A stretch of 64,000 bases of DNA from the NCBI GenBank assembly GCA_964586045.1, contig CAZPFY010000001.1, forward strand, positions 154 through 64,153, given 5' to 3'. The first letter of the stretch is position 1, and every line of letters begins with the position of its first letter. The DNA is from an uncultured Pseudomonadales bacterium (GTDB taxonomy: Bacteria > Patescibacteriota > Microgenomatia > UBA1400 > MFAQ01). Of this stretch, positions 107 through 62,838 are shown in pieces. Both the position numbers and the translations under genes were made by a program. A model generated the notes under the pieces. That model saw only the letters and a program-made list of their open reading frames with translations. It searched no databases and had not been told where the DNA came from.

Positions 107-150
107 GGCGGAGATTGCTTCGGTTCAGAGTACTGAAACTCGCAATGACG
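107..150. mobile_element. MITE/RPE-like repeat, right-half copy (GGCGGAGATTGCTTCGGTTCAGAGTACTGAAACTCGCAATGACG)
   Basis: Same family as 59500..59604. It is intergenic, upstream of the rho promoter. Confidence 0.6.
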
Positions 151-3109: not shown

Positions 3110-4657
3110 TTATTTGGGTGTTGGGTAGGTGAAGGAGGATTCGAGGCTGGTGGAGAGGGTTTGGCCGAAGAAGTTGAGAGTTTGGGGGGAGCTTGGAAAG
3201 CCATTTTGTTTGAGGAGAGTAAGGGAGTAATCGCAGATAGTGTTGGGGAGGGGATGGATTGCCGCGGCCGACCCAAAGTCGGCCTCGCAATGACGATTTG
3301 GGAGGGAGTAGGAGAGGTTAATTTCACTCGTGTTACCGGCGAGGGTAAGATGCCAAAAATTTACGATCTTAAATTTTTGATTGGAGGTATTGGCATAGGT
3401 TGCCGCACTATCCCCCGGATCCAGGTCCGGGGCTAAAGGCTGGGACGCAATGACTGGTGTTTGGTTGATGAGGACGTCGGGGGAGAAACCGGCGGAGGTG
3501 GTGGCTACTTCGGTATGAGAGATGTTGATGTCGGTGGCGTTTTGGGGCAGATAGAGGCGTAGGAAAGCGATGTAGTGGCCACCGTATTGAAGGGGTGGGT
3601 TGGGGTTGGCCTCGGGGGAGGAGTTTTGGAACTGGATGTTTACTTGGTGCTTAACTTGTATGGATTGCCACGTCGGAGTACCTCCTCGCAATGACGGACT
3701 GGGGTTCTGCTTAGTGGCAAGGCTGTCCGGAATGACAGAAATGATGTGGGTGGTGTGGCGAGTGACGTAGGCGTTGGCCTTGTTAGCGCCAAGATTGACT
3801 TCAACTAAACCAAAATGGTCAAAAGAACTGGGTTGATATTCACCAGCGAATTTTTGAGAGATGAGAAAATTTTGAAAATTGGAATTGGTGCTATTGAGGA
3901 CGATGTTTTGATTTTTTAAATCGGTATAAATTATTTTGGTGATCTGATATTTTTTGGAAAGACTAAGGGATTTTATTTTTTTGAATGTTGCGGTGCCAAC
4001 TGCGTGCAGAGCATCGGCTTTTTGGGTGGAGCCGGGGAAAAAGTTGAGTTCGGCTTTGCCCTGGAGGAATAAATAGAGATTGTCGGGAGTGATAGTAGCG
4101 TTGTATTCGGAAACGGTAACTGTGCCAATGAGATTAAATATTTTTTTAATGGTGGAGAGATTGATTAGGCCAAGAATGTTGGGATTGACCTCCTTACCCT
4201 TTTCTAAAAACCAACGAATGGTGGTAGCGGTGGTGGGAAAGTTGGGGTCCCAGTCGGCATTGGCTAACTCCCAAGTGCCGTGGCCAAAGGCTTGCTGGAT
4301 AGGATCTGGTGGCTTAACGTAGCCGTCTAGTTGGCCATTGGGGACGTAGATGTCGTGAAATGAAATGCTAATATCGTCATTGTGAAGAACAGAGTTCTGA
4401 AGCAATCCCCGACGCGGAGATTGCTTCGTCGTTTCACTCCTCGCAATGACGGCTTTGGCGTAGGAACCGGCAAAGCCACCATTGGCGCGAGCTTCGGTAT
4501 CGTTACCTAGAAGAAAGAGATAGGTGGTGGGGGAATTTTTGCCTAATAAATAATTTATATATGGCAAAAAAGGATTCAAAAACTCAAAAACTCGAAAACT
4601 CAAAATGATGAGAATTGTAATTATTAGAAAAGTGGTGAGGAGAAGTTTTTTCTTCAC
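3110..4657 (-). CDS. DUF4012-like membrane-anchored protein carrying four in-frame repeat-element insertions
   Basis: 515-aa ORF with an N-terminal TM helix. LFLLGNDTEARANGGFAGSYA resembles the DUF4012 signature. It contains four copies of the TCGCAATGACG-type repeat and one AAAACTC tract, all in frame. Confidence 0.55.
   Translation of the reverse strand: MKKKLLLTTFLIITILIILSFRVFEFLNPFLPYINYLLGKNSPTTYLFLLGNDTEARANGGFAGSYAKAVIARSETTKQSPRRGLLQNSVLHNDDISISFHDIYVPNGQLDGYVKPPDPIQQAFGHGTWELANADWDPNFPTTATTIRWFLEKGKEVNPNILGLINLSTIKKIFNLIGTVTVSEYNATITPDNLYLFLQGKAELNFFPGSTQKADALHAVGTATFKKIKSLSLSKKYQITKIIYTDLKNQNIVLNSTNSNFQNFLISQKFAGEYQPSSFDHFGLVEVNLGANKANAYVTRHTTHIISVIPDSLATKQNPSPSLRGGTPTWQSIQVKHQVNIQFQNSSPEANPNPPLQYGGHYIAFLRLYLPQNATDINISHTEVATTSAGFSPDVLINQTPVIASQPLAPDLDPGDSAATYANTSNQKFKIVNFWHLTLAGNTSEINLSYSLPNRHCEADFGSAAAIHPLPNTICDYSLTLLKQNGFPSSPQTLNFFGQTLSTSLESSFTYPTPK
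3250..3295. mobile_element. MITE/RPE-like repeat, partial copy inside the DUF4012-like ORF (in frame)
   Basis: GGGGATGGATTGCCGCGG...CTCGCAATGACG, near-identical to the 7467..7509 copy. Translated as ...SLPNRHCEAD... on the minus strand. Confidence 0.6.
3441..3456. mobile_element. degenerate MITE/RPE-like repeat terminus (GGGACGCAATGACTGG) inside the DUF4012-like ORF
   Basis: Terminal motif only. Weak. Confidence 0.3.
3662..3697. mobile_element. MITE/RPE-like repeat, partial copy inside the DUF4012-like ORF (in frame)
   Basis: GGATTGCCACGTCGGAGTACCTCCTCGCAATGACGG, translated as SLRGGTPTW. Confidence 0.55.
4399..4452. mobile_element. MITE/RPE-like repeat, partial copy inside the DUF4012-like ORF (in frame)
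   Basis: GAAGCAATCCCCGACGCGGAGATTGCTTCGTCGTTTCACTCCTCGCAATGACGG, translated as VIARSETTKQSPRRGLLQ. Confidence 0.6.
4576..4605. repeat. AAAACTC heptamer tandem tract (about 4 units) inside the DUF4012-like ORF
   Basis: CAAAAACTCAAAAACTCGAAAACTCAAAA, translated on the minus strand as FRVFEFLNPF. Confidence 0.7.
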
Positions 4658-6582: not shown

Positions 6583-6836
6583 TTATCGTTTCAACAAAAC
6601 CATTTATAAGGCAACTAGCTGATTTGATTCGGAAAAATAATAAATATAAAATTAAGGTGGCAAGGATATTGAAGTTAATGGATTTTGACCTTAGACATCC
6701 TTCTTTAAGAATTCACAAAATAAAAGGAGTAGACTACTATTCTGTGTCTGTAGACATGAAGATTAGAATACTCTATGAAAAAGATAGCAATATGATTCGT
6801 TTAATTGAGATAGGTAATCATGATGAAGTTTATTGA
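6579..6836 (+). CDS. RelE/ParE-family toxin-like protein
   Basis: 85 aa. It is translationally coupled to the upstream RHH gene. The C-terminus KIRILYEKDSNMIRLIEIGNHDEVY resembles RelE/ParE toxins. Confidence 0.5.
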   Translation: MIIVSTKPFIRQLADLIRKNNKYKIKVARILKLMDFDLRHPSLRIHKIKGVDYYSVSVDMKIRILYEKDSNMIRLIEIGNHDEVY

Positions 6837-7596
6837 AGAAATAATTAAGTGGGGGAAGCTGACACCAATATATGATTTGTTGGGGAAGCGGTCGTATGCC
6901 CAGAGCGGGGAGGATGTGGTGGTGGATGCTATTTTGAATCGACAGAAGAGAGGCTTTTATGTAGACGTGGGGGCATATCACCCCAAAGTTTTTTCGAATA
7001 CTTATTTGTTTTATAAACGGGGATGGAAAGGGGTTTGTGTTGAGCCAAACCCGGGGGCAAAAATACTTTTTGAGATTGTGAGACTGAGAGATAGGTTTGT
7101 GGGGTGCGGGGTGGGGGAAAAAACTCAAAAACTCAAAAACTCAAAAACTCAAAATAATGTGATGGAATATTATGTTTTTGGGGAGGGGGCGACAAATACA
7201 TTTTCGAAAAAACAAAGAAATGAAAATATACGATCTTCAAGGAGACTCCTTGAAGTTAAAAAGATTCCGGTGAAAACCTTGAAGGAGATTTTGGATGAGA
7301 ATGTGCCAAAAGGGCAAAAGATTGATTTGATGAGTGTGGATGTGGAAGGGATGGATTTGGAAGTATTGAAAAGTAATGATTGGAAAAAATATCGACCGAA
7401 GGTGGTGATTGCGGAAGATATGACCGGCGTCATCGCGAAGCGTGAAATGCTGTGGCGATCCAGAAAGGGGATGGATTGCCACGGTTCGAGTACGAAACTC
7501 GCAATGACGAATGATAGTGTTGTTGGTTATTTGGTTGGGAAGGGGTATAGATTGGTAGGGATGACGGGGTATTCGATGATTTTTAGAATCGGCTGA
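6820..7596 (+). CDS. FkbM-family methyltransferase carrying an in-frame heptamer tract and a repeat-element insertion
   Basis: GFYVDVGAYHP, VCVEPNP and IDLMSVDVEGMDLEVLKS match the Methyltransf_21/FkbM pattern. The AAAACTC x4 tract at 7128-7155 and the repeat at 7467-7509 are translated in frame. Confidence 0.65.
   Translation: MMKFIEEIIKWGKLTPIYDLLGKRSYAQSGEDVVVDAILNRQKRGFYVDVGAYHPKVFSNTYLFYKRGWKGVCVEPNPGAKILFEIVRLRDRFVGCGVGEKTQKLKNSKTQNNVMEYYVFGEGATNTFSKKQRNENIRSSRRLLEVKKIPVKTLKEILDENVPKGQKIDLMSVDVEGMDLEVLKSNDWKKYRPKVVIAEDMTGVIAKREMLWRSRKGMDCHGSSTKLAMTNDSVVGYLVGKGYRLVGMTGYSMIFRIG
7128..7155. repeat. AAAACTC heptamer tandem tract (4 units) inside the FkbM-like ORF
   Basis: AAAAACTCAAAAACTCAAAAACTCAAAAACTCAAAA, translated as KTQKLKNSKTQN. 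Confidence 0.75.
7467..7509. mobile_element. MITE/RPE-like repeat, partial copy inside the FkbM-like ORF (in frame)
   Basis: GGGGATGGATTGCCACGGTTCGAGTACGAAACTCGCAATGACG, translated as RKGMDCHGSSTKLAMT. Confidence 0.6.
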
Positions 7597-9270: not shown

Positions 9271-12200
9271 TTATTTTGCGTTGTTAATGGCCGTTATAGC
9301 ATTTTTGATATCTTGAGGAATTTGTGAGTCTGTTTGGGGAGCGAAGGTGTCCTGGTTTTTGTTGCGAATTAACTTGGTCCCTTCTTGCCCAACCAGAGCT
9401 TTGAAACCGTCTTCGTCAACAATATAAACATACGGATTGCCGAGTGGTTTGTTGTCGCCAGTCTCCTTGACTGAGTTGGCTTCTGTAACTACGGCATACC
9501 ACTTATTATTCAAGATATATGTTTCAACAATTGCTCCGGTGTGTTTGTCGCCGTTGTTTGTAAAGTAGTCTCCTTTTTGAAAATTGGAAGGTTTAGGATT
9601 TTCGACGATATCTACATTTCTGAGAAAGTCGGGATTGGTAAGCTGGTCTGATGGATAGACGATGGCCTGGTTGCCTTTGGAAACATTGTAGTCAGGATAC
9701 AAGGGTTTTTCGCCATTTCTGCTTGAGTAAATCCCGGTGCTGTAGGCCCACATAAGACATTGGACAATTTCTCTTTCTTTTAGGCCAAAAGTTAAGCCAA
9801 TATAGTTTTGGTAATATTTTTTGTAATCGCTGCTAGAAATAATTCCTTGTAGATTTTTTTCCATGTAATTATTGAAAGCAGTTACATGTTCAGAGTCGTT
9901 ATAAAGAATGCCATCGTATTCTCTGACTATTTTGGCGATATAGGTAATTTTTTGGAGTTGGACTATGGTGGGGTCGGTAGAGTTTGGGTCGAAACTTTGT
10001 GGATTGAGTAATACGCCGTGACCTTGAAGGTCTTTATTTAGTTCCGTGTTGTTTGGGTAAATGGAGTCGGCTTCTGAGTAGTTATATCTTGGGGTGGGGG
10101 TAGTGGTGATAATTTCGGTGGGGGTAGGTGTAATTGTCGGTTGGATTGTGGGTGTGGGGGTAGTGGTGATAATTTCGGTGGGGGTAGGTGTAATTGGGGC
10201 AGCGGTGGTATAGAGCTGGCTATCCATCCAGGGGAGGAAGAAGATAAGGCTCAGGGAGCTGACGGCGGAGATGATGGTTACTCTTACTATTTCGCCCGCG
10301 GTTTTGCCGATGTTTTTTGTTTTGGTGAGTGGGATGGTGTCTGGTGCTGATATGCTTTCTACATTTTTGCTGCGGGTGATGAGGGAGTCACGATACATTC
10401 TGATTGGTTCGAGATTGTTGAGTAGAGGAGTAATGTCGTCCAACTGAGTGCTAAAGCTGTTTTTTTCGGTGCCTTCCTTTAGATACATTGCCTGTTGTTT
10501 GAATTCAAGAGGTTTATTGGTTAGGGCACCACTATCGATGACTTCGGCTCTTGTTCCATAACTGGTTATCTTGCTATCTGGGTAGTAAATTGAATCGATC
10601 CAGACTTTTTCACCCGTGGCAGTAGAAGCCATAGCCCACTCTACAGTTCTTCCTTCGAGTACTCCTTGATGAATTTCTATTTCTATCTTGCCCAAGATAG
10701 AGTCATTGATCGCGTATCTTCGAATTGGTTGTTTGGTAAAGTCAGGAATAAAGCCATCCGGATATTTAAAATTTCTAAAAGTTGCCGTGAAGTCGGTTTT
10801 GGAGTAATCCCTGTTGTAGTATGCGTCGTACTCTGGAGAATAGGTTCCTGGTCTAAAATATTCAACATTTTCGAGCCCTGGAATATCTGTATGGCCAATG
10901 ACCTCTTTGGTGTAGGTGTTTGAAGGATGGGGTATGCCATCGGCGGGAATAAAGTCGGTGACGAAGTTGCCGGTATGGGTTTTGCCTGACTTGCTGTTTG
11001 CTACCAAAGCTTCGTTAATAAGGTGATGGGGTTTTGTTTCTTGGGTGTAGTGAATATCTCTACCTTTACTAAAGGTGTTTCCAAAAGTTCCTGGGGTGAC
11101 TTTCCAGCTACCATCAGCTCCAGACTTCCAAGCGACACGAGCGACGTAAGTACCATTTGGTAGGGTGGTGTAAATGATGACCATTTCGTAGTTACTTCCT
11201 CTGGGTGTGATGGAGTTAAAAGAGTCGGAAATGTAGAATTTTTTTCCGTCTATTTCGACAAATTTGGTTGGTAAATAGGTATCGTCAGCAACAATTTTTT
11301 TGAAGTACTCTTGTGGGTGTTCGGTTTTTAGTTTGACAAACGTTTGTTTTTCGGTGCTGGTAATTGCTTTTGGTAATTCGCTTATTGGTGAGGTTGGCGT
11401 TGGTGTTGATTCTGTTGTCTCAGTCTTGACTTTTGGAGTAAGTTTTTGCCGAGAGATGATTTTTATTTGAGATTTGATATCGTCGATGATGCTCGGGACG
11501 GTGTGAACAATGTTGTAATTTTGGAGATCCGTGTAGTACATAATCATTTTTGTGTAGTTGGTATCGGTGATTGGGGTGAATTTTCCATTGGCATCGAGAT
11601 GACCAAATTCAACAAAAGCGCCTCTGGGCAGGCTTTCAAAAGCGGGTAGATAGTTTGGTCCTTCTTCTAGTGAATAAATGACTCTTGGGGTGCGTAGCTG
11701 AAGATTGTCATTGGTTGAGGTGAGGGCAATGTAAACCTGTTGACCGTTGATTTTGCTGGGAGGGATTGTGCCTTGTTTGGTACCTCCGACTCGGTATTCA
11801 TCACCTGGGTAGATAGCGACGTTTCCTGTCGGCTTGCTTAAACTGGTGGTGGTTTTGTTTGATTTGAACAATTTTCTTGGTTGGAGAGCAGAATTTATTT
11901 GGTAGGGATTTCCGTCGGGGGAGAAGTAGAGTTTGGTGTTTTTGGAGAGAATAATATAGTCACCTGCTTGGGCGCTGGCTTGTCCGCCGGCACGGATGCG
12001 TTGACCGTTGATAGAAACGGTGGAGTTGTTGTTTGCTTTTGGAATCGAGACGAGTATTGATCCATCACTTTCTTTGGTGAGGGTGATGGGGTTACGAGAA
12101 ACCTCGATATCGTGGATGGCTTGATATGGATTGTTGCTATCGTCCGCTTTGGTGTATCTTCCTATATTAAACGATTTACCATTTTCGAGAGGAATGATAG

Positions 12201-15200
12201 AAGATGTTGATTGTCTAGTTTCGGTTCTGCCAGTAAGGATTTCTCTTGCTAAAATAATAACTCCTTTGTCGTTTGTATTTGTCGTGGTAGTGGTCGCGTC
12301 TGTCGCAGGGGCTGTGCGAGAGGAGCGGAGTGGAACTGAAGGAGTGGAAAGAGAACTAGTTTTTTTTTCTGCTAGATAATTGGTAAGTTCTTCTGCGTTT
12401 GGATTGTGACCGTATTTTTCTCGAAACGCAATCATGGCTTCGAAAGTTTTATTGTTTGTTATTTGTTCTGGAGATTGATAGGTTGCAGCGTTTTTTGGAG
12501 CGCTGGTGTTGGCGAGTCGTGCTAATTCTTCTGCACTGTTTACTCTTGTGTTGGCAGCTTTTGGATCTGGGATCGATTTTTGGAGGTAGATATTGGCTTG
12601 TTCTTTGATTATTGCAGCAAGGTCGGCTTTGTCGGTGGCGCTGGTGTTGGGGTCGTTGTATTTGTCGATAAATTTCTGAAGGTAGTCTCTGGTTGGTGAG
12701 TCGGCAGGAGGAAGGACTTTGGAGGAGAGGCCGGTGATTGATTCGAGAGATGTGGGGGTGTTGTTGGTGCTATTTGGATTTTGGGTGTAGTAGTTTTCAG
12801 CAACGATTCTTTCGGCTTCTGTTCTAGATAGATTAAATTCTTTAACTAGATTATCGATAATTAAATACTCAGTTTTTTCATTACGATTGTCGAAGATGTA
12901 TTTTGTTGCTGTTTGAGTTGATGGAGATGGTTGTGTTTGGGTGCGAACATTAAGATCGCGTAGGGGAATGGCTTTGGAAATATTTTCGTTGAGGAATTCG
13001 GCGACCTGCATGCCGATACTTCTCGTTGTGTGTGCTGGTGAATTGATTGCGTCTTTTGGTACATATATTAGTCCGCCAGCTACTGCAACAAAGTCTTTGG
13101 TAGATTCACTTCCAATTTTTACTCCGCCAGACTCGCGGATTAATTCTCCTTTCCAGATTTTGGAAAGTGTTTTTAGGAACCAGTTTTGGGATTTTGTGGT
13201 AGGATTGTTTTTGTAGTTTTTGTTTCCTGGGTATCCCGGAAAGTCGTTGATATCTGCTATGAGGTTTGACTGATTGATAATTTTTTGTAGGTCGATTAGT
13301 TTTGGATTTTTCTGGTCTATCAGATTTATGACTTCAGCTACAGATTTGTTGATTATATCTATGCCGTTATCAGAAGCGATTTTGATTATAATTGTGTCTG
13401 GTTGGTTTGCAGGGATGAGCATTTCGGTGGTGGTGAGTGGTGAGATAAGATTTGATCTGTGTTTGAGTGTATAAGTGACTTCTCCCGTATCTTGGTCTAT
13501 TTTGAGAATGGTGACATTTTTATCAGTGATTCTTTTATCTGCTCCTAAAAATGTCATTAGGCTTTTTTCTCGCATGCCTCTCACTTTTTCTAAAACTTGT
13601 TGTGAAGATAAGTCAAGTCTGTCTCTGACTGATTTGTTGTCTGTGTATAATCCGGTACTGGGGTTGGTGTCGTTGGGATCGATTTGTCCTCTCTCTCTTG
13701 CCCTAACAATTGCCCTACTAGTTAGTTCGTCGACTTTGGACTCGAAAACTGTGGTGGCTAGTTCAATGACATCGGTGTTATCGAGAGGTGAATTGGCTTT
13801 AGAGATGAAGTCTCTTTGGGCAGTGTCTAGGTCTCGATGGTATCTTGCCATTTCTGATAGATAATTTTGGTCTAAACTTAGTGCACGAATTATTTTTATT
13901 TCTTCATCATTAAAATTATTTTTTAGAGTTTCAGTAAAAAAAGACTCATTTTCTGAGGCAATCCCATTTCGCTCTTCCACAATTTTTGCTATTTCAAGAT
14001 TCCTGGGGTTGTTGGTGTTAGCAATTGTATTGCCAGAATCATTTTGATTTCTGTTTAAATATCTTTTTGTGGCGAGTGAAGTTAAACCACTTATTTGTTT
14101 ATCTGTTTGTTCTTGAATTTGTGATTTCGCAGTGGCAATATCTGCTTCGCTGTACCCGTTTTTGGGGTTACTAAAGTCGGCTTCTACCTCGTTAAAGATA
14201 TTTTGGGTTTTTGTAATTTCGGAAATATAGTTTGGATCTTTTGAAAGCATCCTAACCGTTTCAATTTCGGCAGGAGTAAAACCTTCGTCTTGTAGTAGGC
14301 GATATGTATAGAGTGGTTCGCTAGTTAATTTTTGGTGATACTTTTCTGTTGCTTGGGCGATGGTGACATTTCTTTTCGTGTTTGCTGGAGATGAATCTGC
14401 TGGTGATTTAATAAATGGCGTGTCGACTATTTTGGTTGTGTCTGTTGTGATGCTGAATTTGCTATAGATGTTTTTGAGTACAGCTTCGAGTCTTGTTGGA
14501 TTGGCTGCGGCAATTTCTGCCAGCTTTTTTTCTGTTTGTGGAATTTGATTAATGGCCTCAATGGTGAGGTTTTTAACGTCAGTATCGTTTCTCGCTTGTT
14601 TTTGTAAACTTAAAATATATTCTTGATCAAAGCTAAGTTTGAGAGCAATATCTACCTCTTGGTCATTAAAGGCTAGTTTTTTTAAGTGGCTTCTAAAAGC
14701 GTCTAGATTCTCTACTGCTTCGTAGTGATATCTTTCAGCTGCCATAGAGATACCAATAATTTGGTTTTCGCTTAATTCTGTAGCTACGGGTAATTTGGAG
14801 TTTGGGGTGGAGGCGGTCTTTAGCGATTCTGGGTCGAGACTTCTGGGACTTCTGTAGGCTGTGTCATTGAAAAAAATGCCAGGTACTTGAGTGACTGGGT
14901 CTTTTCCTTTCAAGTTTGCTTCGGTTATAAAACTAAAATTGTGATTGGGTGGATTTTCGCGTTTGATCATGTCGGGAGTTAAGCCTTCGACTTTGGCTCC
15001 ACTTTCAAGCACTTTTTTTATAAAGATCGCGTCTGGTTGGTCGCCTGCGATAATCATCGTTCCTGATATATCTTTTCCTAATATTTCGCTATATCGTTTG
15101 GTTAGATAGGTTATCTTTCCTGTTGCTTTTTCTGTTGACAAAATCACGATAGTTGGATCGGACATTCGGTTGGCTGCAGCAGACAGATTGGTCATTTCAG

Positions 15201-18200
15201 CTACGCCTAGATCTTTTATGATTTCTGCGAGCTCGGTTTTTGTAGCACCAAAAGCTAGTTCCATCTTGCGAATATTTTTGGTGCTGTAAACTGGATTTTG
15301 GATTATTCCCAAGCCTCCAAACACTTTGGTCATGGGATAATTTGGATTTATTTTGTCGCCGACGCCACCGGATTCGCCACCTATTCTTCCATACCAAATA
15401 TCGGAAAGTAGTTTTAGAAATCGGTTTTGGGGTTGGGTTGTGTTTGTTGTTTGTCCGAGGGTAACGAGGCTGTTGTATGACGATTCTGGAGTTCCGGGTG
15501 ATAAAAATACGTTTTTAATTTTAACCAAAGCAATTGTTAGATTGTTATATCCCAATGGTTTGGGATTTCCAGGTTTAGTTCCGATTGGTTTTTCAAACTT
15601 CAAAGTGTATTTTTCGTATTTACTAGTTAAGTTTTCGATGGCTATCATTCGATCTTCGTCATTGGTGTATGTCTTAACATTAATTTCGTCTAATTCACCG
15701 ACGAACATTTCAGCAAGGCGATTTTTTTGAGACTTGGTTAGAGTTGGGGGAGCGGTTGGGGTGGTGGGGATTGGGGGTGTTGCGTCTGGTTTTGGCTGGA
15801 GATTCTCTTCACTTATGGCGTTTTTGGCGCCGGCAACAATTTTTTTACTTTCAGCATTTATAAAATCTATTTCATCTGAATAACGCATCTCGTCAACTGT
15901 GGCGATTCTGTTTTCTGACTCGTCGTTTGGATCACTTAAGAGCTCTTTTGCGATGCGTTCATTTGCGATTCCTCTTTCTTCTAGTGCATTTGTTAATAAT
16001 TGGTCTGATCCAGACTCTCTTATCTTTGCAGCGATTTCTAGATCGGAGTTAGAAAAGCCTCGCTCGATGAGTTTTGCTCTAAAATTTGCATCGGATAGAT
16101 CCCTGTAAGTGATAACAGCTCGGACTATGGAGGAGTCTGCGGTAGGAGACCTTGTCAGGTTTTCAAGGTTAGATGCTGTTTCTCGAAAATTTCTACTGTT
16201 ATTTGTTGTGGTGTCGATGGTTTTTGATTTTATGAGGTTGGCGAGGGTGATGTCGTCGGTAGTTTGGGTAGGAATTTTTCGATTGAAGAGAATGTCTTCA
16301 CTGATACCGAGACTGGCGAGTTTTTCGGTGAGTCCGGGGACTTGATTGTAGAGAATTGAGTCGGTGGTGTTGTCGAGTGACTTGTGGGTTGTTCCAGTGG
16401 GGGAGTTTGTTGAATTATTTGTAGCTAAATTTGTGGCTTTGGTTATAGCAAAAGAGGTGAAGTTGATGGCTTTATCGACAGCTTGGTCGAAAACAATAGC
16501 CATGATTAAATTGCTTTTGGCAGCATCATTATTTTCTTTGGTAACTGTTTGGGCAATTTCTTTACAGGCACCAGAGCCAATACCATTTTTTCTTTCGCAA
16601 CTAGTTAGTTCTATTTCAGATTGGGTGTCGATAAAACCAACAGTGCTTTTGAATTGATAGTCGGCTTGAGTGCCGCCTATTAGTGAATTGCCGAGGCTTG
16701 ATGCTAAGTTGATACCAGTAACCCCGGCTTTTTGGAGTAAAGTTGTTGGGTTTGGTAGTTTGAGATTGGCGACGTAGGAACCAGTACCAGCAGAGATGGC
16801 GCCCATGACAGGGGCGATGGCGAGGTTGATGACGGCTTGACGCTGGTTTTCTTTTTGAAGAGCATCAAATTGTTCGTTGATGAGAGTTTGCATGGAAGCT
16901 TGGGCTGTTATTTCTGAGTTGTTTACGACGGCATTGAGATCGGCATTGTACTGTTGGTAGGTATTGGTAATCGCTTGATAATTTGCAAATTGATTATCTT
17001 TGGTGGTACAAGAAGCACCGATTTTGACACCTTCAGCGGTGTCGCAAGCGGCACCTTGGTTGCTATAGATAGCTTGAATGAGGGTGGCGGCTTTGTCGTT
17101 TCCGACAACTTTGGCAATGCCTTGTCTTTCAGCTTCTATTTCTTGGGCAGTGGCTGTCCCAAGAACTGGAACCAAGTTGGAAATTGCAGCAGCTGTTCCG
17201 CCGATGGCGCCACATGCAAGTGCGCCTGGTCCAAGCTCGGCACAAAGGGCTGTGGCAAGGATCGCGGTGCCAACAGCACCGACAACCCCTGTACCCCTGG
17301 TGTAGGTTTCGGTAACGTAGTAGCGATCTAGCATTTCGTTGGCTAAATTGGTTTTTTGTTGTTCAGTAAGCGGTTTGTTTGCTTCGAGCTGATTTCTGAC
17401 TGAAGCGGGAACGCTGATAGAAGTTCCGGACATATTACCAAAACCATATTTCGGATCAAAAAACTGAAGGCGATCATGAGCTTCGGCAGAGTTAACTGCT
17501 TTTTTTCGAGCTTCATCAGACACCGCAGCGTTATCGATGGTGGCAATGTTGCTTTGGAAAGCATCGGGGAGGGCGTCTTTTTGGATTTGATCGTTAAAAA
17601 CTTCGGCTAGATAGGTGTCTGAATTTTGACTAACGATTTTTGTTAACTCTGTTAGAGCATTTTTTCTGGCCTTAATATAATCATTGCTTGACGCGCCACC
17701 ACCGACGGTACTTAAAGCTTTTTGGCAGAGACTGTCGAGACCTTTGTTGATTTCACAAGCTTTTTTGATTGCTAGATTTTGATATTTTGTATCGGCGTTT
17801 TCCCATTTTACTGGTTTTCCGTTGTCGCTAAGACCTTTGATGGTTTGCTCTTGGGTTAGCTTGTTGGACAGAGAAAGAATAATAGGATTCATATCTTGAC
17901 CAACTTTGTAAGCCGAAGCTTTTTGGATATCGGCAAAGGCTTTGGGATTTTTGTTGTACTTGTCGGAATAGGTTTGATAAACAGTAAAATCTTTGGAAAT
18001 ATCTTCTCGGAATTTGAGAGCATACGCGTCTCTTTGTTCGATGGATTGTTTTGAGAGGAGACAGGTGGCATCACAATTTGGCATTTTGTCTTTTAGATAG
18101 GCCCAGGTGGCTTGAGTTATAGCTTGGTCCAAAAGCACGACTTCGTTTTTGACATTGTTATTGATGCCACTGACTTGTTTGCCTTCTTTAAAATTGGGAA

Positions 18201-19608
18201 TGACTTTGGGGATGAGATTTTCGAGAGCTACAAAGCGTTTGGCTTGAGCATCCTGTTTGATTTGGTCGTTAGTTATTTGTTTGAGAATATCTGTTCGTTC
18301 AAAGTTGCGAAGACAATCGGTTTCACCTTTTTTGCAGACACCGGCAGCGACGGCCATATCACTACTTGTTTTGTTTGGGTCGGCGTAGATATTGGCGAAG
18401 AAAATATTATTGATTTGGTCCTGGCGAGCCTTTACTACTTGCTTGTAATAATTTGGATCGGTATCTTTTAGGGCGATGGTGTCGAGATACATTTGAGGTT
18501 TGAAAGTATTTTCGCAAGCGATGTTGCTTTTGCAGTATTCTTTTTTTAGTTCGGCATCAGTTTTGGTGAGAAATTTGTCAGTAACCAATTTGATAGTGGC
18601 AATTTGAGTTTGTTGTTCTCGTAAAGATTTTTTGAAACTTGTGACCTCGATGTCTTCGAAACCAGCATTTTTGAGGTAATCTTCGCGTTGAAACTCTTTG
18701 AGGCAGATATCTTTTCCGGAAGATTTGCTGCAGGCTTCTTTGGCGAGAGTGGCGGTGCTAATATTTAAATCAAAAAATTTACTAAATGATCTCTGTTGGG
18801 CGTCGATTTTTTGGACAGTTTTTTCGAGACTTTCGGGAGGATAGCCAAGGGCTTGGAGCTTGCCCTTGATGTCGGCTTTGGTTTGGATTTCGGTATCGGT
18901 AATGATTGATCTGGTTAGATCGTTGATAAAAGTTTGATTGGCTTGTTCGGTGATATTTTTTTCATATTCGAGGGGGATGTTGTTGAGAGATATTAAGGCC
19001 TTGCCTGCGTCGGCGAGGGTTTTTGTTTGGCAGTCGAGGTTGGTTCCACATGCAGCATACTGTGTTGTGAGATTAGTTTGGGTAAGAATTTCGGAGGAGG
19101 TGAGATTTGCGACTCGGGTTTGAACACTGTTGACGTATTCGACGGCGGCTTTTTTGGTGTCGGGTAAATTGACTACGTATCTTTTGCCGTTTTGACAATA
19201 TGTGCCGGAAACAAAACCGCCACATTCTTTATCGGTGTCGTAACCATATTCACCTTTTTTGGGAACGTAACCAAAGCGATAGGCAGCAATAGGGGTGGGA
19301 GTTACGATAATCTTTTGTTGGGTTGGGGAAGGTGATGTTGTTGGAGAGACTGAGTTTTTTGTTGCGCTAGTGGCAGGATTGTTTTTATCAGCTTTTTTGG
19401 TGGGGGTGGCAGTAGTTTTTGGTGGTGTTGCTTTTTTAACGGGGACAGCTCTATCTTCTGGTACAGTCATGGCGTAGGGGGTGCTACCTGGAGCATTGGG
19501 GGTTATGCCTTTGGTGTCTGAAATTTTTTGGGAAACATAAAAAGATGTGCCTGCGACACCGGAGATAAAAACAACAGCTAAAATGGCTCGTAAAAAGCGA
19601 GTTTGCAC
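9271..19608 (-). CDS. giant (3445 aa) envelope protein with Cys-rich N-region, internal duplicated modules, FHA-like domain, TM segment and C-terminal Cys/His (CHAP/NlpC-like) module
   Basis: Uninterrupted 10.3-kb ORF with a GTG start and an N-terminal signal anchor. Paired-Cys motifs fill the first ~1000 aa. Gly/Ala hydrophobic segments lie at about aa 1050-1110. Duplicated modules are present (ILSTEKATGKITYL.. / ILKIDQDTGEVTYT..). An FHA-like stretch is FNIGRYTKADDSNNPYQAIHDIEVSRNP...VSINGQRI. A TM helix (IVRVTIISAVSSLSLIFFLPW) sits near aa 3170. The C-terminal domain carries QCLMWAYSTG...GDKHTGAIV. Confidence 0.85.
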   Translation of the reverse strand: MQTRFLRAILAVVFISGVAGTSFYVSQKISDTKGITPNAPGSTPYAMTVPEDRAVPVKKATPPKTTATPTKKADKNNPATSATKNSVSPTTSPSPTQQKIIVTPTPIAAYRFGYVPKKGEYGYDTDKECGGFVSGTYCQNGKRYVVNLPDTKKAAVEYVNSVQTRVANLTSSEILTQTNLTTQYAACGTNLDCQTKTLADAGKALISLNNIPLEYEKNITEQANQTFINDLTRSIITDTEIQTKADIKGKLQALGYPPESLEKTVQKIDAQQRSFSKFFDLNISTATLAKEACSKSSGKDICLKEFQREDYLKNAGFEDIEVTSFKKSLREQQTQIATIKLVTDKFLTKTDAELKKEYCKSNIACENTFKPQMYLDTIALKDTDPNYYKQVVKARQDQINNIFFANIYADPNKTSSDMAVAAGVCKKGETDCLRNFERTDILKQITNDQIKQDAQAKRFVALENLIPKVIPNFKEGKQVSGINNNVKNEVVLLDQAITQATWAYLKDKMPNCDATCLLSKQSIEQRDAYALKFREDISKDFTVYQTYSDKYNKNPKAFADIQKASAYKVGQDMNPIILSLSNKLTQEQTIKGLSDNGKPVKWENADTKYQNLAIKKACEINKGLDSLCQKALSTVGGGASSNDYIKARKNALTELTKIVSQNSDTYLAEVFNDQIQKDALPDAFQSNIATIDNAAVSDEARKKAVNSAEAHDRLQFFDPKYGFGNMSGTSISVPASVRNQLEANKPLTEQQKTNLANEMLDRYYVTETYTRGTGVVGAVGTAILATALCAELGPGALACGAIGGTAAAISNLVPVLGTATAQEIEAERQGIAKVVGNDKAATLIQAIYSNQGAACDTAEGVKIGASCTTKDNQFANYQAITNTYQQYNADLNAVVNNSEITAQASMQTLINEQFDALQKENQRQAVINLAIAPVMGAISAGTGSYVANLKLPNPTTLLQKAGVTGINLASSLGNSLIGGTQADYQFKSTVGFIDTQSEIELTSCERKNGIGSGACKEIAQTVTKENNDAAKSNLIMAIVFDQAVDKAINFTSFAITKATNLATNNSTNSPTGTTHKSLDNTTDSILYNQVPGLTEKLASLGISEDILFNRKIPTQTTDDITLANLIKSKTIDTTTNNSRNFRETASNLENLTRSPTADSSIVRAVITYRDLSDANFRAKLIERGFSNSDLEIAAKIRESGSDQLLTNALEERGIANERIAKELLSDPNDESENRIATVDEMRYSDEIDFINAESKKIVAGAKNAISEENLQPKPDATPPIPTTPTAPPTLTKSQKNRLAEMFVGELDEINVKTYTNDEDRMIAIENLTSKYEKYTLKFEKPIGTKPGNPKPLGYNNLTIALVKIKNVFLSPGTPESSYNSLVTLGQTTNTTQPQNRFLKLLSDIWYGRIGGESGGVGDKINPNYPMTKVFGGLGIIQNPVYSTKNIRKMELAFGATKTELAEIIKDLGVAEMTNLSAAANRMSDPTIVILSTEKATGKITYLTKRYSEILGKDISGTMIIAGDQPDAIFIKKVLESGAKVEGLTPDMIKRENPPNHNFSFITEANLKGKDPVTQVPGIFFNDTAYRSPRSLDPESLKTASTPNSKLPVATELSENQIIGISMAAERYHYEAVENLDAFRSHLKKLAFNDQEVDIALKLSFDQEYILSLQKQARNDTDVKNLTIEAINQIPQTEKKLAEIAAANPTRLEAVLKNIYSKFSITTDTTKIVDTPFIKSPADSSPANTKRNVTIAQATEKYHQKLTSEPLYTYRLLQDEGFTPAEIETVRMLSKDPNYISEITKTQNIFNEVEADFSNPKNGYSEADIATAKSQIQEQTDKQISGLTSLATKRYLNRNQNDSGNTIANTNNPRNLEIAKIVEERNGIASENESFFTETLKNNFNDEEIKIIRALSLDQNYLSEMARYHRDLDTAQRDFISKANSPLDNTDVIELATTVFESKVDELTSRAIVRARERGQIDPNDTNPSTGLYTDNKSVRDRLDLSSQQVLEKVRGMREKSLMTFLGADKRITDKNVTILKIDQDTGEVTYTLKHRSNLISPLTTTEMLIPANQPDTIIIKIASDNGIDIINKSVAEVINLIDQKNPKLIDLQKIINQSNLIADINDFPGYPGNKNYKNNPTTKSQNWFLKTLSKIWKGELIRESGGVKIGSESTKDFVAVAGGLIYVPKDAINSPAHTTRSIGMQVAEFLNENISKAIPLRDLNVRTQTQPSPSTQTATKYIFDNRNEKTEYLIIDNLVKEFNLSRTEAERIVAENYYTQNPNSTNNTPTSLESITGLSSKVLPPADSPTRDYLQKFIDKYNDPNTSATDKADLAAIIKEQANIYLQKSIPDPKAANTRVNSAEELARLANTSAPKNAATYQSPEQITNNKTFEAMIAFREKYGHNPNAEELTNYLAEKKTSSLSTPSVPLRSSRTAPATDATTTTTNTNDKGVIILAREILTGRTETRQSTSSIIPLENGKSFNIGRYTKADDSNNPYQAIHDIEVSRNPITLTKESDGSILVSIPKANNNSTVSINGQRIRAGGQASAQAGDYIILSKNTKLYFSPDGNPYQINSALQPRKLFKSNKTTTSLSKPTGNVAIYPGDEYRVGGTKQGTIPPSKINGQQVYIALTSTNDNLQLRTPRVIYSLEEGPNYLPAFESLPRGAFVEFGHLDANGKFTPITDTNYTKMIMYYTDLQNYNIVHTVPSIIDDIKSQIKIISRQKLTPKVKTETTESTPTPTSPISELPKAITSTEKQTFVKLKTEHPQEYFKKIVADDTYLPTKFVEIDGKKFYISDSFNSITPRGSNYEMVIIYTTLPNGTYVARVAWKSGADGSWKVTPGTFGNTFSKGRDIHYTQETKPHHLINEALVANSKSGKTHTGNFVTDFIPADGIPHPSNTYTKEVIGHTDIPGLENVEYFRPGTYSPEYDAYYNRDYSKTDFTATFRNFKYPDGFIPDFTKQPIRRYAINDSILGKIEIEIHQGVLEGRTVEWAMASTATGEKVWIDSIYYPDSKITSYGTRAEVIDSGALTNKPLEFKQQAMYLKEGTEKNSFSTQLDDITPLLNNLEPIRMYRDSLITRSKNVESISAPDTIPLTKTKNIGKTAGEIVRVTIISAVSSLSLIFFLPWMDSQLYTTAAPITPTPTEIITTTPTPTIQPTITPTPTEIITTTPTPRYNYSEADSIYPNNTELNKDLQGHGVLLNPQSFDPNSTDPTIVQLQKITYIAKIVREYDGILYNDSEHVTAFNNYMEKNLQGIISSSDYKKYYQNYIGLTFGLKEREIVQCLMWAYSTGIYSSRNGEKPLYPDYNVSKGNQAIVYPSDQLTNPDFLRNVDIVENPKPSNFQKGDYFTNNGDKHTGAIVETYILNNKWYAVVTEANSVKETGDNKPLGNPYVYIVDEDGFKALVGQEGTKLIRNKNQDTFAPQTDSQIPQDIKNAITAINNAK
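10090..10195. repeat. direct 46-bp repeat (two copies, 60-bp period) inside the giant gene, encoding ITPTPTEIITTTPTP twice
   Basis: GGTGTGGGGGTAGTGGTGATAATTTCGGTGGGGGTAGGTGTAATTG occurs at 10090-10135 and 10150-10195. Confidence 0.8.
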
Positions 19609-59499: not shown

Positions 59500-59604
59500 G
59501 TCATCGCGAATCTCGTACTCGAGCTGTGGCGATCCCCGCTACACAAGATATCACTCAAAGCTCGGAGATTGCTTCGGTTCGGAATACCGAAACTCGCAAT
59601 GACG
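59500..59604. mobile_element. MITE/RPE-like palindromic repeat element, complete copy (TIR GTCATCGCGA ... TCGCAATGACG)
   Basis: About 105 bp, bounded by imperfect inverted repeats. The internal hairpin TTCGG-AATA-CCGAA is shared with other copies. It is intergenic between dprA and a terminator. Confidence 0.7.
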
Positions 59605-61203: not shown

Positions 61204-62838
61204 TTGAGATACAATAAAATCATGTTGGCACGAATTGAGAGCGTGGCTTGTGTGGGACTAGAGAGTTTTTTGGTGGAGGTAGAAGTGGATGTGGCGGAGA
61301 AGGGCTTCCCCGGGTTTAGTATTGTGGGGCTGGCTGACAAAGCGGTGGGTGAGGCAAAAGAGAGAGTAAAAACAGCCTTGATTAATAGTGGTTTTGAGTT
61401 TCCACAGAAGAAAATAATCGTCAATTTGGCACCGGCCGATCTGCCTAAGGAGGGATCGGCGTTTGATTTGGCGATTGCTATGGGGATTTTGGTGGCTAAT
61501 GGGGATATCGAGATAAAAACTCAAAAAATCGAAAACTCAAAAACTCAAAATATCGCTCAAAACTCGGAGATTGCTTCGGTTCGGAATACCGAAACTCGCA
61601 ATGACGACGTGGAAAGTAGCGATATATTTTTTGGGGAGTTGTCGCTCGATGGGAGTTTGCGACACACCAAAGGGGCACTTTTGGTAGCTCTTTTTGCCAA
61701 AAAAGAGAAGAGGAGGAGAGTGTTTGTGCCGGTATTGTCGGCGAATGAGGCGGCGGTAGTGCCTGGAGTAGAGGTAATGCCGGTGAGGAACTTAAAAGAA
61801 CTAATAGTTCACTTTTTGGGAGATAAGAAGATAAAACCTCTGAGAACAATTGAAATAAAAAGCTTGGTGGAAACGGCGATGCCAGACTTTGACATGGCGG
61901 ATATTGTAGGCCAGGAATCGGCGAAGCGAGCCTTGATGGTAGCGGCGGCTGGGGGACACAATATGCTCATGTCTGGGCCACCAGGATCGGGTAAAACCAT
62001 GCTCTCCAGGGCTTTACCTGGAATAATGCCCCCGATGACCGAGGAGGAGAGTATGGAGGTTACTAGGGTTTACTCGGCTTCGGGATTGATGGAAGCGGGA
62101 GAAGCGATTGTGCGCAGAAGGCCATTTCGGTCGCCTCATCACTCGACGAGCCTTGCTGGCTTAATAGGAGGTGGCAGTAGGCCTATGCCTGGGGAAGTGA
62201 GCCTCGCTCACTTGGGGGTATTGTTTTTGGATGAGATGGCGGAGTTTCCCCGGAGCGTGTTGGAGGCCATGAGGCAACCAATGGAGGATGGGAAGGTGGA
62301 GATATCAAGAGTAGCCGGGAGAATTAGCTATCCTGCGTATTTTCAGCTCATTGCTGCGGTGAACCCGTGCCCTTGTGGCTATTTGGGGCACCCAACTAAA
62401 GAATGTAAGTGTACGAGTAGAGAGGTTGAGAAGTATAAAAGAAGGATAAGTGGGCCTATTTTGGATAGAATAGATTTGCATATCAATGTCCCGGCGGTGG
62501 AGACAGAAAAGATCGTGGGGAATGTAGAAAAGGGAGAAAGCTCTCTGGTGATTAGACAAAAAATTGTCAAAGCGCGACAAATTCAAAGCACAAGGTTTGG
62601 TAAAGGGAAAATTTATTGCAATGCCCAGATGAAAAACAAGCAAGTGAAGGAGTTTTGCGATCTGGATGAGGAGGGGTTAAAAATCCTGAAATTAGCCATG
62701 GAAAAGTACGATCTGTCGGCCAGGGGCTACTTTCGGATTTTAAAGGTGGCCAGGACGATAGCGGATTTGGAGAATAGTGAGAAGATTTTGAGCTCGCATT
62801 TGGGGGAGGCGCTGCAGTACCGGGAGAGGGTGTTTTAG
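61204..62838 (+). CDS. comM: YifB/ComM-family Mg-chelatase-like AAA+ ATPase with an in-frame heptamer-tract plus repeat-element insertion
   Basis: N-terminal Lon-like ChlI domain. Walker A is MLMSGPPGSGKTM. The insertion IEIKTQKIENSKTQNIAQNSEIASVRNTETRNDDVESS lies between the ILVANGDI and FFGELSLDG motifs, which are normally about 10 aa apart. Confidence 0.9.
   Translation: MRYNKIMLARIESVACVGLESFLVEVEVDVAEKGFPGFSIVGLADKAVGEAKERVKTALINSGFEFPQKKIIVNLAPADLPKEGSAFDLAIAMGILVANGDIEIKTQKIENSKTQNIAQNSEIASVRNTETRNDDVESSDIFFGELSLDGSLRHTKGALLVALFAKKEKRRRVFVPVLSANEAAVVPGVEVMPVRNLKELIVHFLGDKKIKPLRTIEIKSLVETAMPDFDMADIVGQESAKRALMVAAAGGHNMLMSGPPGSGKTMLSRALPGIMPPMTEEESMEVTRVYSASGLMEAGEAIVRRRPFRSPHHSTSLAGLIGGGSRPMPGEVSLAHLGVLFLDEMAEFPRSVLEAMRQPMEDGKVEISRVAGRISYPAYFQLIAAVNPCPCGYLGHPTKECKCTSREVEKYKRRISGPILDRIDLHINVPAVETEKIVGNVEKGESSLVIRQKIVKARQIQSTRFGKGKIYCNAQMKNKQVKEFCDLDEEGLKILKLAMEKYDLSARGYFRILKVARTIADLENSEKILSSHLGEALQYRERVF
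61515..61553. repeat. AAAACTC-type heptamer tract inside comM, immediately upstream of the repeat-element copy
   Basis: AAAAACTCAAAAAATCGAAAACTCAAAAACTCAAAAT, translated as KTQKIENSKTQN. Confidence 0.75.
61563..61605. mobile_element. MITE/RPE-like repeat, right-half copy inside comM (in frame)
   Basis: CTCGGAGATTGCTTCGGTTCGGAATACCGAAACTCGCAATGACG, identical over 43 nt to the 59562..59604 part of the intergenic copy. Translated as SEIASVRNTETRND. Confidence 0.7.

Follow-up and report, generated by a model that had tools for sequence, protein, structure and literature searches.

We consider it highly probable that an ORF in the DNA analysed here encodes a functional membrane-anchored DUF4012 protein in which CGTC-class hairpin repeats have become fixed in four surface loops. 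The gene lies in a stretch of 64,000 nucleotides (the window) from a member of the Collierbacteria, an uncultured bacterium of groundwater type. The phenomenon itself is known, and the gene adds a new host and an extreme case to it: protein-incorporated palindromic repeats, best known from Rickettsia, are extended to the Candidate Phyla Radiation (CPR), within the same CGTC superfamily.

Results

An intact DUF4012 gene with repeat DNA at four sites

The DUF4012 ORF (Table 1) is open through its repeats, as the original prediction had claimed, and its translation contains each of the peptides quoted at the time (RHCEA, VIASQPLAPDLDPG, SLRGGTPTW, VIARSETTKQSPRRGLLQ and FRVFEFLNPF). Predicted peptides across the insert junctions include ...AVIARSETTK, GGTPTWQSIQVK and HCEADFGSAAAIHPLPNTICDYSLTLLK. 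The protein has an N-terminal membrane helix (residues 2-30 in the AF2 model) followed by an extracytoplasmic domain, and it matches PF13196 in Pfam (E = 9e-10, 39.6 bits vs a cut-off of 28, residues 43-199); the match extends across the first repeat site, site A. The 256 homologues of the protein, where named, are Candidatus Collierbacteria. A fold search with the model returned weak LCP-type matches only, with TM-scores of 0.31-0.46 (normalised to target length). Together, the N-terminal helix and the weak LCP-like match suggest that this may be a surface or envelope protein.

A separate contig from JGI has an identical 515-aa protein on record, and the ORF can be aligned from end to end with orthologues that have the same gene neighbourhood. 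These two observations ruled out a pseudogene or an assembly artefact.

Table 1. Positions of the DUF4012 gene, its repeat sites and the other repeat loci of the window.
Feature	Position	Strand	Remarks
Host gene DUF4012	3110..4657	-	intact 515-aa ORF, GTG start
Site A, inverted dimer of two CGTC-tagged units	4376..4450	-	codes VIARSETTKQSPRRGLLQNSVLHNDD (aa 70-95)
Site B, single CGTC-tagged unit GTCATTGCGAGGAGGTACTCCGACGTGGCAATC	3663..3695	-	codes SLRGGTPTWQS
Site B 5' part, truncated CGTC-1-like head T-GTCATTCCGGAC	3725..3736	-	codes VIPD
Site C, degenerate unit GTCATTGCGT ... GCGGCAAC with nested module	3398..3454	-	codes VIASQPLAPDLDPGDSAAT
Nested palindromic module CCTTTAGCCCCGGACCTGGATCCGGGGGATAG within the site C unit, unrelated to it	3408..3439	-	
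Site D, single CGTC-tagged unit GTCATTGCGAGGCCGACTTTGGGTCGGCCGCGGCAATC	3257..3294	-	codes RHCEADFGSAAAI
8-mer tract (GAGTTTTT)n, also written (AAAAACTC)n	4576..4605	-	codes FRVFEFLN in the N-terminal helix; TRF period 8, 3.8 copies
Inverted dimer in FkbM methyltransferase gene 6820..7596(+)	7429..7508	+	in frame, codes VIAKREMLWRSRKGMDCHGSSTKLAMTND
8-mer tract (61515-61550) and single unit (61569-61605) in comM 61204..62838(+)	61515..61605	-	in frame, opposite strand read, codes KTQKIENSKTQNIAQNSEIASVRNTETRNDD
Single unit, intergenic, upstream of rho	113..149	-	
Inverted dimer, intergenic, between convergent dprA and histidine-phosphatase genes	59500..59603	.	
Inverted dimer, intergenic, directly after the comM stop codon	62842..62965	.	

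The repeat core GTCATTGCGA has nine exact matches in the window, against 0.05 expected from shuffles. On the coding strand of the DUF4012 ORF there are three exact copies and one with a single mismatch, and an inverted partner lies at 4376. Four of the nine repeat loci of the 64-kb window fall inside this 1.5-kb gene, making it a hotspot (binomial P = 4e-5). The claim of four repeat copies held as far as repeat DNA at four sites is concerned, but the copies are not equal: one site has a dimer and others have single units, and a remnant and a nested module are also present. They are read in different frames, as had been proposed, and all three sense frames are used: sites A and C are read as GTC ATT GCG (VIA), site B as G TCA TTG CGA (SLR) and site D as GT CAT TGC GAG (HCE).

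At site A, one unit (4419-4450) is on the coding strand and the other (4376-4407) is inverted; the DNA folds with -20.3 kcal/mol (z = -4.3). The whole insert at site B covers aa 308-332 (3662-3736), and a complete version of its truncated head, GTCATTCCGGACTTGATCCGGAATC, is found in the orthologue L004. The insert at site C (aa 402-425) contains a unit that is degenerate in its AGTC tag and in having GCGT in place of GCGA. Its nested module folds with the hairpin CCCCGGA/TCCGGGG and is also present in the orthologue L005, there at site B (PLAPDLDTGDS). At site D (aa 455-475, 3233-3295), the DNA folds with -13.3 kcal/mol (z = -3.7) and the tag is unpaired.

The inserts lie outside the conserved protein

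The four repeat-coded segments total 96 aa, with 21-26 residues per site. When the protein was aligned with 30 homologues, the segments fell in alignment gaps or in unrelated sequence: their identity was 0.02-0.09 and their occupancy 0.23-0.66, vs 0.61 and 0.99 for the remaining protein. Site D had an identity of 0.02 and an occupancy of 0.27, site C had 0.05 and 0.23, and site A had an identity of 0.07. Subtraction of the 96 inserted residues from 515 leaves 419 aa, and insert-free homologues have 417-430 aa. Both the frame and the conserved flanks are retained on either side of each insert. Judged from this alignment, the segments are lineage-specific insertions outside the DUF4012 core, and the refuting outcome named in the original prediction, conserved core residues, was not found.

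In the AlphaFold model (predicted structure only), four of four inserts are in low-pLDDT loops between beta strands. Site A is placed between strands E65-73 and E94-102 (pLDDT <50 for residues 83-91), site B between E298-310 and E333-345, site C has pLDDT <50 for residues 407-425, and site D forms a loop following strand E443-452. The inserted loops are probably disordered according to this model, and no conserved peptide is common to the inserts. The original prediction had described novel loops in a surface protein; the predicted inter-strand positions agree with the loops, and a surface location is suggested by the helix and the weak fold match.

The AAAACTC tract through which the frame was also said to stay open is real and is translated as FRVFEFLN. 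However, its region in the N-terminal membrane helix aligns gap-free with all homologues (occupancy 1.0, identity 0.41), and the tract is therefore no net insertion. It is present in L001, L002 and L005; at this place L004, L006 and L007 differ in sequence but not in length. The high occupancy and the equal-length orthologues thus ruled out the tract as an insertion in the host gene.

Structure and coding properties of the repeat unit

Units in the window have the form ATTGCGAG...G[AT]RGCAAT and are built from an outer stem of 5 bp, an internal loop and an inner hairpin that varies. Single units are about 32-38 nt long (one has 59 nt) and inverted dimers about 75-125 nt. CGTC accounts for 11 of the tags on the 13 window heads; the head at 59500 has TGTC and the degenerate one at 3445 has AGTC. 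In 144 units of other phyla, 71 tags are CGTC and 60 are TGTC. The tag is unpaired in computed folds. All 12 well-formed window units read (C)GTC-AT[TC]GC...GC[AG]AT-C, and the ATTGC/GCAAT pairing is present in the folds of site D and of the ComM unit. The 3' tail is CCA in 4/12 window units and CTC or CCC in the rest; the multi-phylum set has CCA in 54, CTC in 42 and CCC in 16 units. Eight of the 12 window units form four inverted dimers with the tags outward, and for 91/144 units elsewhere an inverted partner lies no more than 120 nt away. Single units are as common as dimers. Terminal inverted repeats of 11 nt border the dimers, which fold as long hairpins.

Only a single frame of the six is interrupted by a stop in a window unit. 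Across 149 units from many phyla, one frame has a stop in every unit (100%) and each of the other five in 2-13% of units. Since the unit is stop-free in five of six frames, the frame stays open as long as the length divides by three and the loop tolerates the insert. Within the window, 6/9 loci are intragenic vs a coding fraction of 0.88, and thus there is no overall enrichment of repeats in genes. Selection for in-frame, stop-free insertions had been suggested; the frame is indeed kept, but with one stop frame in six and this intragenic share the pattern is better described as survivorship.

The repeat element is not a curated RNA family in Rfam: at the gathering threshold the window gave two tRNAs only, and a permissive scan of five element-rich loci gave no credible family. 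Full-text literature searches for GTCATTGCGAG or its complement returned primer coincidences only, and those combining CPR or Patescibacteria with palindromic repeats returned nothing relevant.

Copies in other genes and genomes

The FkbM dimer folds with -22.8 kcal/mol (z = -5.2), and units are also found in the FkbM genes that adjoin DUF4012 in L005 and L007. Residues 105-140 of ComM have no counterpart in the solved ComM 8rxd. In other low-GC MAGs, in-frame copies occur in apparent GMP-synthase, PurL-like, DNA-ligase and sugar-kinase ORFs (functions assigned by eye). Unit cores are near-identical across phyla.

Orthologues carry different units at the same sites

The architecture of the host gene is found again in seven orthologues, which come from different samples. 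The comparison of orthologues, which had been proposed as a check, found repeats recurring at the same four sites, with unit types that differ between orthologues. Canonical CGTC-1 units occupy these sites in orthologues; one of them, with 8 bp in the stem and 4 nt in the loop, codes CHSRESGNP, and others code VIPAKAGIH and DSRLRGND. The unit at L001:4396-4427, in which an 8-bp stem closes a 4-nt loop and the tail is CCA, is a canonical CGTC-1. The orthologue peptides are identical to, or one residue off, R. conorii intragenic REP peptides (PMC3733652 Additional file 3).

Unit density is 1.69 per kb in the DUF4012 orthologues vs 0.32 in their flanks, a five-fold density for which passive tolerance alone does not account. 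The site A units of the host gene and of L003 differ at 3/37 nt. The site B unit is common to L001 and L002, and at the third codon positions of this shared unit 13/13 are identical vs 0.46-0.51 (about 0.49) in the remaining gene; this synonymous identity, too, is not accounted for by passive tolerance alone. Hairpin stability was rejected as its cause because the site B unit, a weak hairpin that barely folds alone (z = -0.2), folds no better than shuffles.

Between proteins of >90% identity, sites C and D vary in a mosaic, recombination-like pattern. P0006 and P0162, which differ at site D, have 1 mismatch in ~190 nt of upstream DNA and diverge block-wise around sites C and D and downstream. 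Because this mosaic is recombination-like, the exact insertion boundaries are not readable from the pair. A filled site in comparison with an empty one (L128 against L129) gave a diverged mosaic with no clean boundary, and the other length differences inside 90% clusters were mostly start-site or truncation artefacts.

Discussion

Origin and maintenance of the inserts

CGTC-class units are scattered over the genome, in coding and intergenic DNA. In the explanation that we favor, a copy that adds a net multiple of three nucleotides to an insertion-tolerant loop would leave the protein working and would have escaped purifying selection. The repeat would then be transcribed and translated with its host protein, adding a loop of 21-26 residues per site. 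We infer both that the inserts are translated and harmless and the way in which the units spread.

There is an alternative, which we regard as unlikely, that the inserts are adaptive. REP cassettes could be recruited or exchanged at exposed loops to vary the surface, e.g., in phage or host recognition, or the hairpins could constrain nucleotides as mRNA or DNA pause, stability or protein-binding sites. The different unit types at the same four sites across orthologues would fit such a role, as would the mosaic differences at sites C and D between nearly identical proteins. The five-fold density over the flanks and the hotspot in the window point the same way, but a hotspot could also arise simply if insertions are tolerated in these loops only. 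Similarly, the synonymous identity at site B and the few differences between the site A units of the host gene and L003 favor a constraint on nucleotides, but since unit cores are near-identical across phyla, re-insertion or gene conversion could mimic synonymous conservation. Moreover, disorder is predicted for the inserts, which have no conserved peptide in common, and the unrelated cytoplasmic genes FkbM and ComM also carry units, all of which speak against adaptation. We likewise see a slim chance that CGTC repeats in the coding DNA of this CPR lineage are non-inert, through site-preferential insertion or conversion, maybe still active, or through a hairpin function in mRNA or DNA. The repeated refilling of the four loops with different cassettes, and the freezing of shared units at synonymous positions, would point to it. 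If true, selfish repeats would be diversifying exposed loops in tiny-genome organisms without a known transposase for the elements.

It is very improbable that we are dealing with MITEs, or with GTAG REPINs mobilised by RAYT, instead of with CGTC REPs. The 11-nt terminal inverted repeats and long hairpins would suit such elements, and spacer-separated inverted units are REPIN-like, but the tag is CGTC/TGTC and not GTAG, and single units are as common as dimers. No target-site duplication was seen by eye in the flanks of four dimers, nor was a transposase domain found by Pfam in the 31 window ORFs scanned. Least credible of all is that the segments are conserved DUF4012 core or belong to a pseudogene or a repeat-collapse assembly chimera: MAG assemblies can misjoin at repeats but nothing else is in its favor, and it is opposed by the low identity and occupancy of the segments, the frame and conserved flanks kept around each insert, the identical JGI protein and the shared architecture of the seven orthologues from different samples.

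The repeat-coded peptides (VIARSE..., SLRG..., HSRESGNP, VIPxxDPE) inflate and diversify CPR proteins and can be a source of error in homology searches, in domain boundaries and in structure prediction. The four densely and recurrently filled loops in one gene family form a natural test set for the tolerance of random loop insertion and for repeat mobility.

Comparison with known repeat systems

REPINs have a GTAG tag and a RAYT Y1 transposase (Bertels & Rainey 2011, PMC3116915). The window dimers resemble them as genome-dispersed inverted doublets that fold as one long hairpin, but the units here have a CGTC/TGTC tag, and no Y1 transposase was seen in the scanned window ORFs.

The closer match is the CGTC-tagged REP superfamily (Di Nocera, De Gregorio & Rocco 2013, BMC Genomics 14:522; PMC3733652). 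That article describes an unpaired terminal CGTC (accepted variants TGTC and CCTC), a stem that opens with A-T complementary pairs at positions 1 and 2, and a short unpaired 3' tail that is mostly CCA. The units are mostly inverted dimers, sit directly 3' of genes and also in frame within genes, and are not known to have an associated, dedicated transposase. They are described from 5 phyla, mostly Alphaproteobacteria; in R. conorii, the CGTC dimers have tags outward, as in the window dimers (PMC3733652 Additional file 3). The CGTC/TGTC tag, A-T-initiated stem and inverted dimers are shared by the window units, here in a CPR bacterium, as are locations directly 3' of genes and in frame within them. 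The tails of the window units are short and C-rich, with CCA in 4/12. Unlike CGTC-1 to CGTC-4, for which the article gives an 8-9-bp stem and a 4-5-nt loop, the window units are more composite and, at 32-59 nt, longer; their outer stem has 5 bp. Because that geometry was not found, we file them as a superfamily variant outside families 1-4; a "Bradyrhizobium CGTC-1 with unusual loops" is among the types described in the article (PMC3733652).

The same source equates the Neisseria dRS3/NIME repeats with CGTC-1 (PMC3733652). The dRS3-like ATTCCC-N-GGGAAT hairpin is of the same type as units in L001, L002 and L004. In contrast to dRS3, which is mainly intergenic and clustered, the window has only a truncated head of the dRS3/CGTC-1 type.

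RPEs (Ogata et al. 2000/2002) are described, in PMC10969869 and PMC3733652, as palindromic repeats in frame in unrelated genes, tolerated at fold-compatible positions, with about half of the copies in genes; RPE-1, of about 100-150 bp, is given there as restricted to Rickettsia. The resemblance to RPEs noted in the original prediction extends to both behavior and relatedness. In-frame inserts absent from homologues occur here in the unrelated genes DUF4012, ComM and FkbM, and the four in DUF4012 lie at loops that the predicted model suggests are fold-compatible. RPE-4 and RPE-6 are listed as CGTC-4 and CGTC-1 (PMC3733652), and peptides of their type are found in the orthologues, although not among the window's ATTGC-type units. 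Unlike RPE-1, the units here are shorter and modular, occupy four sites in one gene and reside in a free-living or episymbiotic CPR host. Since the CGTC superfamily, with its tag and AT-initiated stem, includes RPE-4, RPE-6 and dRS3, the analogy with RPEs reflects real relatedness.

Repeat units in the window

The 10-mer GTCATTGCGA has nine exact matches in the 64-kb window, compared with 0.05 in dinucleotide-preserving shuffles, and 13 such heads are present when up to one mismatch is allowed. A stricter pattern, in which the head is joined by a complementary ATTGC...GCAAT pair followed by C, yielded 12 well-formed CGTC units of 32-59 nt. With one degenerate copy included, these form nine repeat loci (see table), four of which lie within the 1.5-kb gene for a DUF4012 protein (binomial P = 4e-5). 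Single unpaired CGTC units are on the minus strand in 5/5 cases. The GC skew of the plus strand, (G-C)/(G+C), ranges from +0.16 to +0.41 over most 2-kb bins, independent of gene strand, and falls to ~0 at 24-28 kb only.

Features of the window and the four repeat-coded segments (sites A-D) of the DUF4012 protein; occupancy and identity are means in alignment A1
Feature	Position (strand)	Location or note	Residues	Occupancy	Identity
Single unit	113-149	intergenic, upstream of rho
8-mer array	507-528
8-mer array	1922-1949
DUF4012 gene	3110-4657 (-)	outside the four segments		0.99	0.61
Single unit	3257-3294	site D (inserts, 3233-3295)	455-475	0.27	0.02
Degenerate copy	3398-3454	site C	402-425	0.23	0.05
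Single unit	3663-3695	site B	308-332	0.37	0.09
Inverted dimer	4376-4407 / 4419-4450	site A	70-95	0.66	0.07
8-mer array	4576-4605	DUF4012 gene
FkbM-type gene	6820-7596 (+)	methyltransferase
8-mer array	7119-7154	FkbM gene, (AAAAACTC)x4.5, coding EKTQKLKNSKTQNN
Inverted dimer	7429-7460 / 7474-7508	FkbM gene, 80-nt insert 7429-7508, coding VIAKREMLWRSRKGMDCHGSSTKLAMTND
Giant ORF	9271-19608 (-)	3445 aa
Giant ORF	22046-31891 (-)	3281 aa
GC-rich stretch	25284-27970	in second giant ORF
ComEC "Competence" domain	40060-41178 (+)	separate ORF
Metallo-beta-lactamase domain	41474-42253 (+)	separate ORF
16-nt tandem repeat	51640-51697	GTTTGTCGGTTGACCA x3.6, 95% identity
Inverted dimer	59500-59534 / 59567-59603	intergenic
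comM	61204-62838 (+)	insert 61515-61605
8-mer array	61515-61550	comM
Single unit	61569-61605	comM
Inverted dimer	62842-62876 / 62907-62965	intergenic

The repeat-coded segments are insertions in an intact gene

The DUF4012 ORF has a GTG start, is open over all 515 codons and encodes every peptide quoted in the original prediction. Its product scores above the gathering threshold of Pfam DUF4012 and has 256 homologues at E <= 0.001, the named ones all but one from Candidatus Collierbacteria (CPR, Microgenomates). Aligned with 30 homologues of 51-67% identity (alignment A1), the four segments proved to be insertions rather than DUF4012 core, their identities being 0.02-0.09. They sum to 96 residues, and the remaining 419 aa compare with 417-430 aa in insert-free homologues. 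An AlphaFold2 model made from alignment A1 (mean pLDDT 72) places all four in predicted beta-strand connections, with low local confidence. The pseudogene reading that the original prediction had allowed for is rejected, as are artefact and conserved-core readings, because a separate JGI contig records an identical 515-aa protein and the neighbourhood of LysM-M23 peptidase, FkbM methyltransferase and rho is common to seven orthologues of different samples; the alignment also speaks against these readings.

Among PDB structures, the DUF4012 model (m33a6ca7d310c) comes closest in fold to the structural-genomics proteins 3pe5, 3owq, 3nxh and 3nro, but all of these matches are weak (TM-scores ~0.4, normalised to target length). 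We take these to be of the LytR-CpsA-Psr (LCP) type, which hints at a cell-envelope role. Site D inserts of orthologues are flanked by two common cysteines (e.g., TCHSRESGNPSNKNLCP, PCDLSLRAERGNLTPPCP), neither of which is present in orthologues lacking the insert; a disulfide closing this loop is possible.

Unit structure and reading frames

The four copies originally described are four occupied sites of unequal make-up. A complete inverted dimer occupies site A (DNA fold -20.3 kcal/mol, z = -4.3), and at site D a single unit forms a strong hairpin that leaves the tag unpaired (-13.3 kcal/mol, z = -3.7). The single unit at site B, which follows the truncated head GTCATTCCGGAC of a different unit type, barely folds (z = -0.2). 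At site C a degenerate unit is interrupted by a nested 32-nt palindromic module, which is also found at site B of one orthologue (L005). The copies are indeed read in different frames: sites A and C use GTC-ATT-GCG, site B G-TCA-TTG-CGA and site D GT-CAT-TGC-GAG, so that all three sense frames are used.

The open frame had been attributed to selection for in-frame, stop-free insertions. Among the matches listed from many phyla (149 units), a stop occurs in 2-13% of cases in five of the six frames and always in the sixth (...AA-TGA-C). Therefore, the ORF remains open as long as an insert adds a multiple of three nucleotides net, does not use that one frame and lands where it is tolerated. Only 6/9 repeat loci are intragenic, against a window coding fraction of 0.88; this fits a loss of harmful insertions and is no sign of units being drawn to genes. 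The frame is open as claimed, probably because the unit is nearly stop-free in five frames and harmful insertions are lost.

A second repeat class consists of 8-mers in tandem (minus-strand sequence GAGTTTTT), in one orientation throughout; the three intragenic arrays measure 30, 36 and 36 nt. The (GAGTTTTT)n array of the DUF4012 gene, the proposed AAAACTC insertion, is translated inside the N-terminal helix, in a region that aligns without gaps to every homologue, and orthologues without it carry an equal length of other sequence. This tract is therefore not a net insertion. At site A, several orthologues have tracts similar to the 8-mers, which code LEFLNPRVLEF-type peptides.

The FkbM gene has two in-frame inserts, an 8-mer tract and a full CGTC dimer, and FkbM genes adjoining DUF4012 in two orthologous loci (L005, L007) also bear units. 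In comM, an in-frame insert of ~30 aa comprises an 8-mer tract and one CGTC unit read on the reverse strand, the array directly adjoining the unit; the insert separates the N-terminal and AAA domains, and solved ComM (8rxd) has nothing equivalent. The window also holds comEA and dprA, and what may be a split or interrupted comEC, the ORFs of the two domains being separated by 295 nt. Part of the second giant ORF has a GC of 0.51 compared with ~0.42 and many CCA/CAC triplet repeats.

Variation among orthologues

In the DNA of orthologues (L001-L007) the same four positions carry differing unit types: GTCATTGCGAG...GCAATC types in L002, L003 and L007, GTCATTCCGGG-N-CCCGGAATCC (coding VIPGxDPES) in L001 and L005, and, in L001 and L002, GTCATTCCCGCGAAAGCGGGAATCC (coding CHSRESGNP) at site D. 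L006 has no unit at sites B, C and D. Unit density in the seven genes is 1.69 per kb compared with 0.32 per kb in the flanks.

The site B unit matches L001:3993-4025 and L002:3984-4016 at 13/13 third codon positions, compared with 46-51% in the remainder of these genes, and at site A the units of the window gene differ from those of L003 at 3/37 nt. This likeness could be due to a constrained nucleic-acid sequence, to gene conversion by other copies, or to insertions that recurred at one site. Hairpin stability does not explain the site B identity, given how barely that unit folds. The proteins P0006 and P0162, over 90% identical, differ in that only one has the site D unit. Their DNA (L128:2000-2560, L129:2000-2540) has 1 mismatch in ~190 nt upstream and diverges in blocks around sites C and D and at the 3' end. 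This comparison revealed a block-wise mosaic with no clean excision, which suggests that loop alleles are swapped by recombination.

Distribution and relation to known repeats

An exact scan for GTCATTGCGAG-N8-30-GAAGCAATC, with one genome per species, found at least 120 loci. The matches listed include Bradyrhizobium, other Alphaproteobacteria, Gammaproteobacteria, Chloroflexota, Bacteroidota, Cyanobacteria, Planctomycetota, Patescibacteria, Omnitrophota, Zixibacteria, Armatimonadota, Spirochaetota and Helicobacter rodentium; 63% of the units listed have an inverted partner, and their architecture is the same throughout. Long ORFs of several other low-GC MAGs contain the unit in frame (L059:4513-4543, L100:5290-5320, L104:2015-2050, L123:947-978, L029, L052); judged by eye, their translations resemble GMP synthase, a PurL-like enzyme, ATP-dependent DNA ligase and a PfkB sugar kinase.

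Di Nocera et al. 2013 (PMC3733652) divide REPs into a GTAG and a CGTC superfamily according to the unpaired tag. In CGTC REPs, known in 2013 from 5 phyla, A-T pairs open the stem, the tail is mostly CCA, inverted dimers predominate and there is no dedicated transposase (PMC3733652). The unit's presence in at least 120 species of many phyla is broader. Neisseria dRS3 (CGTC-1) belongs to the CGTC REPs, as do R. conorii RPE-6 (CGTC-1) and RPE-4 (CGTC-4); intragenic copies exist, foremost in R. conorii (PMC3733652). In a 2024 review of MITEs, RPEs are still the prime example of in-frame insertion (PMC10969869), and our literature search found no paper on in-frame palindromic repeats of this kind in CPR bacteria.

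The original prediction is confirmed as an observation and supported in its interpretation, with three refinements. Its likening to Rickettsia palindromic elements holds, since the window units share the tag, A-T pairs and dimers, and in part the tail, of the superfamily that includes RPE-4 and RPE-6. DUF4012 orthologues encode peptides equal or almost equal to the reported VIPAKAGI, CHSRESGNP, SFPRKRES, DSRFRGND and VIAGLDPAIH (PMC3733652, Additional file 3). The geometry of the window units is longer and composite, and they are therefore classed as a variant within the CGTC superfamily, outside families 1-4. This is a known phenomenon in a new host, and a striking example of it, with four occupied loops in one gene recurring across orthologues.
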